From positions 57,350 to 121,349 of the forward strand of contig JBBRAY010000007.1 of NCBI GenBank assembly GCA_038206355.1: DNA of 64,000 bases, written 5' to 3'. This DNA is from Bacteroidia bacterium. GTDB lineage: Bacteria; Bacteroidota; Bacteroidia; AKYH767-A; 2013-40CM-41-45. Shown here in pieces: positions 52,871 to 54,939 of the stretch. Both the position numbers and the translations under genes were made by a program. Each line of letters opens with the position of its first letter. Position 1 is the first letter of the stretch. Below the pieces are notes generated by a model. That model ran no database searches and was not told where the DNA came from. It saw nothing but the letters and a program-made list of their open reading frames with translations.

Positions 52871-52943
52871 GCCAATGTAGCTCAGTTGGTAGAGCACATC
52901 CTTGGTAGGGATGAGGTCACCGGTTCGATCCTGGTCATTGGCT
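52871..52943 (+). tRNA. tRNA-Thr(GGT)
   Basis: gccaatg/cattggc acceptor, atcc-ttggtag-ggat. Confidence 0.95.
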
Positions 52944-53033
52944 CAGAAGAAAGAAGAAGAAGGAAAACAAATAGTTTAGAAGAATAATTTGACCCGTGGA
53001 ATTGATAAAATAGAAAACCCGTCAGGGGAGTGT

Positions 53034-53082
53034 GTCACCGGTTCGTCCCGATAGCTATCGGGACTGGTCATTGGCTCAGAAG
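53034..53082 (+). pseudogene. 3' half copy of tRNA-Thr(GGT) with an 18-bp palindrome in the T-loop
   Basis: gtcaccggttcg[tcccgatagctatcggga]ctggtcattggctcagaag versus intact gtcaccggttcg-atc-ctggtcattggctcagaag. Confidence 0.9.
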
Positions 53083-53132
53083 TAAAAATTAGAGAAGAAT
53101 ATAAATAGAGAGTAATTTGAGTTCAGAATAGA

Positions 53133-53210
53133 TTTGGTAGGTTATCCGCAACGGCGGAAGATCACCGGTTCGTCCCGATAGCTATCGGGACTGGTCATTG
53201 GCTCAGAAGA
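53133..53210 (+). pseudogene. Second partial copy of tRNA-Thr(GGT) with two inserted palindromes
   Basis: tttggtagg-tta[tccgcaacggcgga]agatcaccggttcg[tcccgatagctatcggga]ctggtcattggctcagaaga. Confidence 0.88.
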
Positions 53211-53335
53211 CAGAAGAAGAAAGTAAATTGAAGAGAATTGCATTCATTAATTACATCACAGATTATTTAACTTAACCGGCTTCCTTAAAATCAAAATAAA
53301 TCAATCGTTTTAACAACATTTAATCATTAAATAAA

Positions 53336-54523
53336 ATGGCAAAAGCAAAATTCGAACGTAACAAACCCCATGTGAATATTGGTACCATCGGTCACGTTGA
53401 CCACGGTAAAACAACCCTTACAGCTGCAATCACTGCTGTTCTTTCTGAAAAAGGATTTGCAGAAGTTCGTTCATTCGACTCAATTGATAATGCTCCTGAA
53501 GAAAAAGAGCGTGGTATTACTATTAATACTGCACACGTAGAATACCAAACAGAGAAGCGTCACTATGCGCACGTTGACTGTCCGGGCCACGCTGACTATG
53601 TAAAAAACATGGTTACCGGTGCTGCCCAGATGGACGGAGCTATTCTTGTAGTTGCTGCTACTGACGGACCGATGCCACAAACACGGGAACATATCCTTCT
53701 TGCACGTCAGGTTGGAGTTCCTAAGATTGTGGTTTTCATGAATAAGGCCGACATGGTTGACGATCCGGAACTTCTTGACCTCGTTGAGATGGAAATCCGT
53801 GACCTGTTAACTTTCTATCAGTTTGATGGAAACGCTACTCCTATCATCCGTGGTTCTGCTTTGGGTGGTTTGAATAAAGATGCTAAATGGGTTCCTGCAA
53901 TTATGGAATTGATGGATGCAGTAGATACTTTCATTCCTGTTCCTCCGCGTGAAGTTGACAAGCCTTTTCTTATGCCTGTTGAGGACGTGTTCTCAATCAC
54001 AGGTCGTGGAACTGTTGCAACAGGACGTATTGAGCGTGGTGTAATTAATTCAGGAGAAGAAGTTGACATCATTGGTATGCAGGAGATTTCTTTGAAGTCA
54101 ACTGTTACCGGTGTGGAAATGTTCCGTAAAATTCTTGACAGAGGTGAAGCCGGTGATAACGTTGGTCTTCTTCTTCGCGGTATTGAAAAGGATCAGATCC
54201 GCAGAGGAATGGTGGTTGCAAAACCGGGTTCCATTACTCCGCATACTCAGTTCAAAGCTGAAATTTATGTATTGAAGAAGGAAGAAGGTGGACGCCACAC
54301 TCCTTTCCATAATAAATATCGCCCGCAGTTTTATCTCCGTACCACTGACGTTACAGGTGAAATTACTTTACCTGAAGGTCGCGAAATGGTGATGCCGGGA
54401 GATAACGTTACAATTTCTGTAAGCCTGATTCAACCTGTTGCAATGGACAAAGGTCTTCGCTTCGCTATCCGTGAAGGTGGACGTACCGTTGGTGCAGGAC
54501 AGGTAATTGAGATCGTAAAATAA
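53336..54523 (+). CDS. tuf: Elongation factor Tu
   Basis: [37 protein letters not shown]. Confidence 0.99.
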
Positions 54524-54606
54524 GTTGGCAATAGGCAGTTGGCAGTGTGCAAACACAAACGAAATCGTGTTCAAATTGCCAATTGCCAACTGCTTACTGC
54601 CAATTG
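54524..54606. repeat. Inverted heptamer arrays (ttggcag-type / ctgccaa-type)
   Basis: gttggcaataggcagttggcagtgtgcaaac...attgccaattgccaactgcttactgccaattg. Confidence 0.75.
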
Positions 54607-54610
54607 AATT

Positions 54611-54671
54611 ACGGGTGTAGCTCATCCCGATAGCTATCGGGAGGTAGAGTAGTCCGCCTCGGCGGATTGGC
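54611..54671 (+). pseudogene. 5' partial copy of tRNA-Trp with a palindrome in the D-loop and a replaced anticodon arm
   Basis: acgggtgtagctca[tcccgatagctatcggga]ggtagagtag[tccgcctcggcgga]ttggc. Confidence 0.9.
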
Positions 54672-54698
54672 AGAAGAGTTTGAGCTAGTTAAAATTGA

Positions 54699-54771
54699 AC
54701 GGGTGTAGCTCAATTGGTAGAGTAGCGGTCTCCAAAACCGTTGGCTGGGAGTTCGAGTCTCTCCACCCGTG
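54699..54771 (+). tRNA. tRNA-Trp(CCA)
   Basis: acgggtg/cacccgt acceptor, gcggt-ctccaaa-accgt; canonical tuf-trpT-secE position. Confidence 0.96.
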
Positions 54772-54804
54772 CGAAAGAAGAAAGTGGAAAATTGATAATT
54801 GTCA

Positions 54805-54841
54805 GGGAGTTCGTCCCGATAGCTATCGGGACTCTCCACCC
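54805..54841 (+). pseudogene. 3' partial copy of tRNA-Trp with a palindrome in the T-loop
   Basis: gggagttcg[tcccgatagctatcggga]ctctccaccc versus intact gggagttcg-agt-ctctccaccc. Confidence 0.9.
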
Positions 54842-54939
54842 AAACGAAGGAAATTAGTTAATGATCATTCTTTATTAGCTGAGTGAAATAGAATTTAAAA
54901 TAGAATGTTTTTCGAATAACAAATAACGGTAAAGCAACA

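Follow-up and report, generated by a model that had tools for sequence, protein, structure and literature searches.

An 18-bp palindrome standing in place of three nucleotides in broken tRNA copies and at other sites in Bacteroidota genomes

Four copies of one perfect 18-bp palindrome, TCCCGATAGCTATCGGGA (hereafter PAL), flank the tuf gene in a 64,000-nt stretch of a Bacteroidia bacterium assembly (GCA_038206355.1, contig JBBRAY010000007.1, positions 57,350 to 121,349; hereafter the window), and each of them lies inside an incomplete copy of a neighbouring tRNA gene. The locus raises the question of what such a sequence is, how it came to lie in the loops of tRNA pieces, and whether it is moved from place to place. 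PAL can be viewed as a pair of 9-bp inverted repeats joined without a gap, and the fold computed for it as single-stranded DNA has a 7-bp stem and a 4-nt loop (-5.9 kcal/mol). In the following, G000 denotes the genome of the window (4.16 Mb in 110 contigs), G001-G004 are its congeners, and G015 is a genome of another genus in the same family.

The initial annotation had reported four exact 18-mers and none elsewhere in the window; our search returned the same four positions (Table 1), no further PAL-like site in the window at up to 3 mismatches, and no match in 100 dinucleotide shuffles. Its description of the surroundings was likewise reproduced, as ARAGORN and exact string look-up agree that the copies sit in partial duplicates of tRNA-Thr(GGT) and tRNA-Trp, with the intact gene adjoining. 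In the look-up against the intact genes, 3 nt are swapped for PAL at each of the four sites (T-loop 58-60 in three cases and D-loop 15-17 in one), and the flanks are otherwise native, with no target-site duplication found at any of the four copies, just as had been claimed. The two Thr pieces share 6–7 nt of 3' trailer with the intact tRNA-Thr; as they carry this trailer, they are copies made at the DNA level and not copies of mature tRNA, and the retro-copying of a cleaved tRNA was set aside as their source for the same reason.

Beyond the window, the exact 18-mer was found in at least 120 genome stretches in a scan with one genome per species, and in 46 IMG/VR viral contigs. Arithmetic gives a chance expectation of ~9 hits in 596 Gb. 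The 80 titles among the matches listed name Flavobacteriales, Chitinophagales, Cytophagales, Sphingobacteriales, Saprospiraceae, Bacteroidales, 'Bacteroidetes/Bacteroidia' and one 'uncultured bacterium', and we take the genera named in them to belong to Bacteroidota; isolates of Flavobacterium, Aequorivita and Algoriphagus are among those titled. As far as sequence matches go, PAL is phylum-wide, neither a local nor a genus-level oddity. Among the viral contigs, several related ones (loci L037, L059, L062, L063, and L064) contain more than one PAL copy, set in arrays of AT-rich words; within a few hundred nucleotides of these lies an open reading frame (ORF) that resembles a large terminase as judged by eye, and one 23-kb viral contig contains at least 5 copies.

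Counted genome-wide, as the initial annotation had proposed, PAL has 90 copies in G000 at up to 2 mismatches (31 exact, 44 with one and 15 with two mismatches). At up to 1 mismatch there are 75 copies in G000, 68 in G002, 66 in G003, 86 in G004, 20 in G015 and 2 in G001, and PAL occurs at least once in 20 of 41 related genomes, while a reversed-pattern control gave 0 everywhere (all tallies over the 41 genomes, also those of protein families below, include the unpublished G038, on which no claim rests). PAL is the only high-copy perfect palindrome in G000, and its half-sites are seldom found there alone. The mismatches in G000 fall on the two central letters in 22 of 74 cases and are otherwise scattered over the stem, with compensatory changes in only 1 of the 15 two-mismatch copies; since the stem changes go uncompensated, the copies decay with no selection for pairing. 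Most common of all in this genome are two changes in the central AGCT, C-to-T at position 10 and G-to-A at position 9, which amount to one transition read from the two strands; deamination could explain it, acting either on a methylated cytosine or within an extruded loop.

Filled and empty forms of the same site were found by comparing relatives, again along a line that the initial annotation had suggested. The tuf terminator reads aggca-gtt-ggcagt in G001 and G000 and aggca-PAL-ggcagt in G002, the nusG-rplK spacer has aaa(t) in G002 and PAL in G004, and the D-loop of the Trp 5' piece has att in G003 and PAL in G000 and G002. A 16-kb stretch of G000 with 7 PAL sites gave no more clean pairs when set against the four congeners, which are 70–80% identical there with unalignable intergenic DNA, and the paralogues in G015 (one pair fitting +30 nt for a double PAL, others +9 nt) are too diverged for use. 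Whether a site is filled or empty depends on the lineage. PAL has recently expanded in this genus, its copy number moving in bursts. A repeat of ~100 nt with at least 6 copies in G000 (C2:34364, C3:94399, C8:49969, C31:42449, and, in reverse complement, C12:37134 and C45:30060) includes, in this order, ctcagggcaa, a PAL variant with an AACT centre, ctgaacccaaatttccggggcaagccccgggg and then another hairpin; the one copy scanned (L012) had no Rfam match.

Sites next to tRNA sequence are strongly enriched over the whole genome and in other genomes as well. In a BLAST test, 10 of the 90 PAL sites in G000 adjoin tRNA-like sequence compared with 24 of 3000 random positions (by eye the number is ~14–15), while at least 80 of the 90 have no tRNA-like flank; in other genomes the figures are 8 of 196 against 1 of 996, at D-loop 14-16 or in the anticodon loop. 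The pieces with PAL in G000 derive from tRNA-Leu(CAA) (D-loop, anticodon edge, and T-loop), tRNA-Leu(TAA) (anticodon edge and T-loop), tRNA-His (anticodon edge, and a D-loop with a further nested insert) and tRNA-Asp (two tandem 5' pieces). Three nucleotides are replaced at all three places in Leu(CAA), in the T-loop of Leu(TAA) and twice in the D-loop of Asp, and four at the anticodon edges of His and Leu(TAA); in L194 and L065, from other genomes, positions 1-13 are followed by PAL and then by 17 onward. Over all these tRNAs PAL is found at D-loop 14-16 or 15-17, at T-loop 57-59 or 58-60, or at the 5' edge of the anticodon loop, and none of the intact tRNAs of G000 contains it. In D and anticodon arms PAL replaces letters at the loop's 5' edge and in T-arms at its 3' edge, equivalent to the 5' edge of the opposite strand, a pattern that fits, without proving it, a structure-guided cut at the loop/stem junction.

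Two further arrangements at tRNA genes were seen in G000. Near full-length pseudo-tRNA-His copies at C23:5463-5600 and C12:37280-37430 have PAL at the anticodon edge and a D-loop PAL split by a 24–28-nt hairpin, with ~35 nt upstream in common; no intact tRNA lies close to the C12 copy, so the pseudo-gene must have moved or been copied as one unit. The genes for tRNA-Arg(TCT) and tRNA-Cys (C41:18476-18640 and C45:17702-17880) are each followed by an insert of ~150 nt ending in tgatcagcgSagcta and then by a repeat of the last 16–17 nt of the tRNA from the T-loop, which looks like a small element or an integration scar.

Most copies are nevertheless intergenic: an ORF of at least 150 aa spans 19% of the 90 PAL sites in G000, compared with 85% of 2000 random positions, and 81% have no such ORF. 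Several lie in frame inside real genes, where PAL reads PIAIG or PDSYR (the third frame has a stop codon), in keeping with the translations PIAIG and PDSYRD given earlier from the letters of the window. PIAIG falls inside C-terminal sorting domains of the type IX secretion system (three of three tested proteins match Por_Secre_tail), and PDSYR was seen in a different ORF from the PIAIG proteins. In G015, PIAIG lies in the signal peptides of a paralogous family, with a nested double copy, VPIVPIAIGIG, opposite a single A in a paralogue. The tandem secreted proteins of ~300 aa in this genome (C76:19500-28500 and C38:1-6000; L198, L200) contain it within the signal peptide and close to the C-terminus, and it is also found in their intergenic spacers, which makes 10 PAL in 6 kb. 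Nesting of PAL in PAL, with CTA replaced, was likewise seen.

The flanks are complementary to each other more often than in controls, with duplexes of -6 kcal/mol or better at 24% of G000 sites (13–15% in controls) and of -8 kcal/mol or better at 19% of 179 sites in other genomes (7% and 5% in controls), and some copies cap terminator-like stems followed by T runs (e.g., L051, L056, L132, and L148). Direct repeats of 4 nt adjoin PAL at 14 of 89 sites in G000 (1.7 expected) and at 10 of 179 elsewhere (1.1 expected). In the two empty alleles at hand, both members of the repeat are already present with 3 nt between them (ggca-gtt-ggca and ttga-aaa(t)-ttga), so the repeats point to a preference for arrays with a 7-nt period and not to a duplication upon insertion. 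No fixed sequence adjoins PAL in the flanks from G000 and other genomes. The earlier view of PAL as a discrete non-autonomous insertion agrees with the replacement of ~3 nt, the lack of target duplication and the strong enrichment in tRNA loops. The narrower claim, that the element strikes tRNA hairpin loops, holds as an enrichment and fails as a rule of specificity; the 3-nt swap is mostly constant over the targets, but these also include 7-nt arrays, other hairpins, PAL itself and coding sequence, and complementary flanks are found at only about a fifth to a quarter of sites.

How the tRNA pieces themselves arose is a separate matter. The tRNA-Trp place holds a plain gene in G001, G004 and G015. 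In G003, a Trp 5' piece has the foreign anticodon-arm hairpin together with a normal D-loop, agctcaattggtagag, and no PAL, and an 81-aa ORF of the GIY-YIG type lies between tRNA-Trp and secE (C203, L020), its stop codon falling in the D-arm letters of the 3' piece. The order piece, intact tRNA, GIY-YIG ORF, piece recurs in G000 at tRNA-Leu(CAA), tRNA-Leu(TAA) and tRNA-Val(TAC), the last without PAL (loci C4:28540-29300 and C94:1100-2950, both on the minus strand, and C6:1-560 with C17:1-200). These tRNA-nested ORFs have 81–94 aa and a stop codon inside tRNA-derived letters of the D-arm or the anticodon loop. The 94-aa ORF at Leu(CAA) (C4:28691-28972) matches the GIY-YIG family PF01541 at 47.9 bits, with a cut-off of 22.6, and is a predicted nuclease; the genome scan for this family also picks up the C6 and G003 C203 ORFs. 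An ORF of the tRNA type lies within ~300 nt at 6 of 166 PAL loci elsewhere, beside tRNA-Asn, Met, Val, Leu and a Pro/Thr cluster. At C94, a further ORF of ~330 aa was seen between the tRNA and the GIY-YIG gene. Different small GIY-YIG ORFs (~100–120 aa), which are not tRNA-adjacent, are flanked by the repeats gtcattgcgaag or gtcattccgaatgaagcggagcgtaatgaggaatc (G000 C2:81400-81830, C16:57300-57900, C76:1-700, C1:174300-174800, and C36:37400-38000).

Since the Trp 5' piece of G003 is free of PAL, tRNA piece and PAL are separable, and another element, of the GIY-YIG type, appears to have left the partial tRNA copies as by-products. The initial annotation had supposed that tandem duplication after a hit by PAL preserves tRNA function; with the PAL-free piece in G003 and cassettes at three tRNAs of G000, this order of events is probably wrong.

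We therefore propose, with a probability of about 0.5, that PAL is a miniature insertion element which is mobilised in trans and gathers in dead tRNA pieces. PAL would enter as a single unit in place of ~3 nt, and the resulting net gain of 15 nt preserves the reading frame. As it has no gene of its own, its movement or copying would have to depend on a trans-acting factor, which may insert it or copy it in where DNA is transiently single-stranded, folded or slipped. Preferred landing places would be those where DNA folds or slips, namely the loop/stem edges of tRNA arms, hairpins, the apex of PAL itself and 7-nt arrays, and the element would have been active recently in this genus. The tRNA pieces of the window most likely arose separately, from GIY-YIG cassettes that duplicate part of a tRNA gene; working tRNAs may stay free of PAL because a hit there would be lethal, with purifying selection presumably keeping them so, and PAL would accumulate in the dead copies. 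In its boldest form the proposal would make PAL the smallest mobile DNA of bacteria, a bare 18-nt hairpin moved by a conserved trans factor of the Bacteroidota that cuts and replaces at single-stranded loop/stem junctions (-3, +18 nt), with tRNA arms as hot spots and a chemistry outside that of DDE, HUH, serine and tyrosine enzymes; we offer this version tentatively and regard it as rather doubtful.

A number of observations weigh against a mini insertion element moved in trans. Exact conservation of 18 nt over a phylum is hard to square with a purely neutral passenger, and structural targeting is a tendency, most sites being without complementary flanks. Copying between tRNA-derived sequences with 15–25 nt of the D- or T-arm in common, and not fresh insertion, could explain why PAL recurs at the same places in tRNAs. 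The replaced length varies: it is 5 nt in L166 and 4 nt at His, with two further sites perhaps also at 4 nt, and we know of no named transposition chemistry that combines the loss of 3 nt of target with an 18-bp insert. The similarity between the spacers of the window pieces and the end of the G003 ORF is not significant (proportion of shuffles reaching the score, 0.10–0.17), so the cassette origin of the Thr pieces is argued by analogy only, and the PAL-free piece in G003 could reflect a loss through gene conversion from the adjoining intact gene. The candidate enzymes do not track PAL either: Y1/RAYT genes are also present in PAL-poor G001 (2 copies), TnpB (PF01385) was found in 0 of 41 genomes, and a reverse transcriptase as template source was rejected, with no match in G004 (86 PAL, 98% complete). 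GIY-YIG matches, 1–11 per genome with all types pooled and UvrC included, do not follow the PAL counts (9 matches and no PAL in both G008 and G020; 5 matches and 2 PAL in G001). Finally, no neighbour gene of PAL recurs, the largest cluster of ORFs within 1.5 kb covering 6 of 166 loci.

Other candidates for the agent were set aside. The initial annotation had found no gene for a mobilising enzyme adjoining the PAL copies of the window, and we agree. A link with RAYT was rejected, as the 500 bp around each of the 5 Y1_Tnp matches in G000 hold neither PAL nor any site resembling it at up to 4 mismatches. Also rejected, in a search of G000, was a larger parent element ending in PAL halves, since half-sites are few there and their pairs enclose 4–30 nt only. 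A transcription-factor operator was set aside, with no conserved neighbour gene at 166 loci. By reasoning, hairpin opening of the P-nucleotide kind with snap-back repair would yield sequence derived from the flanks and not a constant one, and telomere-resolvase junctions were set aside by reasoning alone.

Among the rival explanations, the one that survives best ties PAL to the tRNA-nesting GIY-YIG cassettes: PAL would be put in when a break made by the nuclease in a tRNA-gene loop is repaired, or be kept because it interrupts a repeat or destroys a cleavage site, and the other copies would be spill-over. In the repeat-interrupter variant, the cassette would be lost, were PAL not there, by deletion between the direct repeats that intact tRNA and piece form. 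PAL is indeed present in the flanking pieces of two among the three G000 cassettes of the tRNA type (three copies in Leu(CAA) and two in Leu(TAA)), the six loci with a nearby tRNA-type ORF point in the same direction, and the Trp 3' piece of G003 begins at G18, which is the right boundary of PAL in G000. Nuclease genes flanked by the palindrome had been named as worth looking for, and while RAYT gave none, L166 has an intact tRNA-Met and a GIY-YIG gene flanked on both sides by the junction gactc-PAL-caggtgg. GIY-YIG relatives of the Slx1 type are structure-specific nucleases, which also speaks for this explanation. It is nonetheless unlikely, given the at least 80 of 90 G000 sites without tRNA-like flank, the 160 of 166 loci elsewhere without such an ORF, the absence of PAL from both the Val(TAC) cassette and the G003 Trp 5' piece, and pooled GIY-YIG match counts that do not follow PAL.

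We regard it as quite unlikely that PAL is instead a selected functional hairpin, acting as an RNA stem-loop (stabiliser, terminator cap, or processing or protein site) or as the DNA site of a dimeric protein, with the tRNA pieces around tuf as processing signals. The identical 18-mer in distant lineages of Bacteroidota would be explained in this way, as would the terminator-like stems capped by PAL and the excess of complementary flanks. In the Trp 5' piece, the hairpin that stands for the anticodon arm differs in sequence between genomes (tctcgcctaaggcgaga in G002 and tccgccacggcgga in G003, at the same place) and yet keeps its pairing, and the tRNA-derived letters of the Trp pieces are identical in G000 and G002 despite ~15% difference there, although gene conversion from the intact gene can explain this identity. 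The single compensated copy among the 15 with two mismatches speaks against selection on the fold, as do the lack of a conserved gene neighbourhood and the copies in coding sequence, in PAL and in dead tRNA pieces; the tuf locus of G001, G004 and G015 has neither pieces nor PAL, and Rfam gave true tRNAs only, with no family match for PAL.

It is improbable that insertion into tRNA loops was untargeted throughout, one or a few old hits having been spread by short-homology gene conversion between conserved D- and T-arm sequences and then kept by survivorship, as a piece interrupted by PAL would cease to recombine with its intact gene. Different tRNAs of G000 share 15–25 nt at 95–100% identity in the D-arm region, the D- and T-loop positions of PAL are near-identical in many tRNAs, and the paired Asp units, like the paired Thr pieces, look locally duplicated after insertion. 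The boundaries, however, differ between tRNAs (14-16 and 15-17; 57-59 and 58-60), which implies several independent events, and clean fresh insertions exist at non-tRNA sites. Short-homology conversion probably contributes to the spread of PAL among tRNA pieces.

The idea that the duplicated pieces are artefacts of a metagenome-assembled genome has next to no chance of being right: the genome is in 110 contigs and one contig breaks in a similar tRNA-Val repeat (C17/C6), but both Trp pieces with PAL variants recur in G002, an independent genome from a different species of this genus, parts of the arrangement are bridged by contigs from reads, and the phenomenon is also present in named isolate genomes. 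Logan contigs of runs X1 and X2 span 52931-53082, and with it Thr piece 1, with 0 differences, and one of X1 alone spans 54743-54900 with the Trp 3' piece, also with 0 differences; X1 is perhaps the source sample, and all three DNA runs come from one study. Read support for Thr piece 2 consists of depth, which may come from other PAL copies. The RNA run X4 (Logan contigs, share 0.09) has no depth at 52998-53342 and almost none at 54585-54653, and is uninformative either way on the earlier suggestion that the transcribed pieces could act as decoys or processing signals. The artefact that the initial annotation had allowed for was thus not encountered as far as tested.

Table 1. Positions of tRNA genes, tRNA pieces, PAL copies and associated hairpins around tuf, numbered within the window
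Feature	Position	Strand	Basis
Intact tRNA-Thr(GGT), without PAL	52871..52944	+	ARAGORN; Rfam tRNA 64 bits
tRNA-Thr 3' piece 1: 46-57, PAL, 19 nt from 61 into the 3' trailer	53034..53082	+	exact look-up
PAL copy 1, in place of T-loop 58-60 (atc)	53046..53063	.	exact look-up
Hairpin tccgcaacggcgga ahead of Thr piece 2, at the place of the anticodon arm	53141-53154		
tRNA-Thr 3' piece 2: 47-57, PAL, the same 19 nt as in piece 1	53162..53209	+	exact look-up
PAL copy 2, in place of T-loop 58-60 (atc)	53173..53190	.	exact look-up
tuf coding sequence, with tRNA pieces in its 5' and 3' flanks	53336..54523	+	read from sequence, not a protein-family scan
tRNA-Trp 5' piece: native upstream flank, 1-14, PAL, 18-27, foreign hairpin, ttggc	54611..54671	+	exact look-up
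PAL copy 3, in place of D-loop 15-17 (att)	54625..54642	.	exact look-up
Second hairpin type tccgcctcggcgga (TCCGCC-NN-GGCGGA) instead of the Trp anticodon arm	54653..54666	+	
Intact tRNA-Trp(CCA), without PAL, between both Trp pieces	54699..54772	+	ARAGORN; Rfam
tRNA-Trp 3' piece: 49-57, PAL, 61-70, native downstream flank	54805..54841	+	exact look-up
PAL copy 4, in place of T-loop 58-60 (agt)	54814..54831	.	exact look-up

The foreign hairpin of the Trp 5' piece, which is followed there by letters of the variable loop, belongs to a second type, TCCGC(C)-N2-6-(G)GCGGA, with 30 matches in G000 compared with 8 for the reversed control. Hairpins of this type stand in for whole anticodon or T arms of tRNA pieces (the two window sites in Table 1, L020 in G003, and C29:6906, C29:8249, C35:400 and C68:4906 in G000), and in one repeat family such a hairpin occupies exactly the place that PAL has in other copies. 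Downstream of tuf (window 54524-54606), at C13:44540-44640 in G000 and in many PAL flanks, intergenic hairpins are built of words with a period of ~7 nt (ttggcaa, ctcatat, ttcgtaa, and gtgagat); the orthologous spacers of congeners use other words (tagacaa, tactaat), so turnover of the arrays is fast.

If PAL is truly mobile, it would set a new lower size limit for insertion elements, and a target rule by which 3 nt are replaced and the frame is kept is unusual and would call for an enzyme present across a major bacterial phylum. PAL is also of use as a marker, as it exposes dead tRNA pieces and the GIY-YIG cassettes that nest in tRNA genes. It adds five residues (PIAIG or PDSYR) to secreted proteins, and for annotation it accounts for strange fragments resembling tRNA and for small insertions that keep the frame in genomes of Bacteroidota.

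The mechanism behind PAL has a real chance of being new. Our literature search returned nothing on PAL or on GIY-YIG cassettes in bacterial tRNA genes in the texts that it reached, which is no proof of absence. For the cassettes, and not for PAL, the closest likeness is SegB of phage T4, described as the gene of a free-standing GIY-YIG homing endonuclease in a tRNA gene cluster (see PMC2330249). Both are small GIY-YIG genes among tRNA genes, but those of G000, which are putative nuclease genes, lie in or beside a duplicated chromosomal tRNA of which an intact copy is supplied. Integrase attachment scars consist of a partial 3' tRNA copy at the far end of an integrated element with a tyrosine or serine recombinase. 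No integrase lies between intact genes and pieces in the window (gaps of 33–140 nt), and 5' pieces also occur, unlike the products of 3'-end integration, but integration events may have been old and eroded. PAL does not look like a tRNA intron of the bacterial group I or archaeal bulge-helix-bulge type, which would be removed from the transcript of an otherwise complete and working gene, since all its tRNA hosts are pieces or multiply disrupted, with an intact PAL-free gene adjoining, and Rfam calls none of the window's pieces a tRNA. Nor does PAL look like an IS200/IS605 derivative, for which TnpA (Y1), often TnpB, subterminal hairpins and a fixed target of four or five nucleotides would be expected: TnpB was not found in the 41 genomes, and there is no fixed adjoining target sequence.

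REP sequences (repetitive extragenic palindromes) are described as imperfect palindromes of 20–40 nt with a GTAG or CGTC tetranucleotide at one end (compare PMC3733652). Like the REP/REPIN-RAYT systems, PAL is short, palindromic, mostly extragenic (but with several copies in frame inside real genes), present in tens to hundreds of copies and non-autonomous, and it forms hairpins that are often near terminators. Unlike them, it is a perfect 18-bp palindrome without a GTAG/CGTC tag, has variable flanks, forms no doublets and does not lie beside the Y1 genes of G000; moreover, it replaces 3 nt, enters coding sequences in frame and is identical over a phylum, where REP sequences are species-specific. 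MITEs (miniature inverted-repeat transposable elements) such as Correia and Nezha are also non-autonomous and built of terminal inverted repeats, whereas PAL has no internal sequence and loses 3 nt instead of duplicating its target, and a full-length autonomous parent with PAL ends was not found in G000. The mobile GC clusters and the small double-hairpin or palindromic elements in organelles of fungi and algae are longer and variable in sequence, and those of yeast duplicate their target. They resemble PAL in being very small, in forming hairpins, in spreading within a genome and in entering tRNA, rRNA and protein genes, but PAL is bacterial, exact in sequence and subject to other target rules. 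The Rickettsia palindromic elements (RPE), of ~100–150 bp and confined to one genus, are inserted in frame in protein genes and also in RNA genes, where they are tolerated; PAL shares with them this insertion into reading frames and RNA genes, and differs in its length of 18 bp, in the replacement of 3 nt and in its range over a whole phylum.

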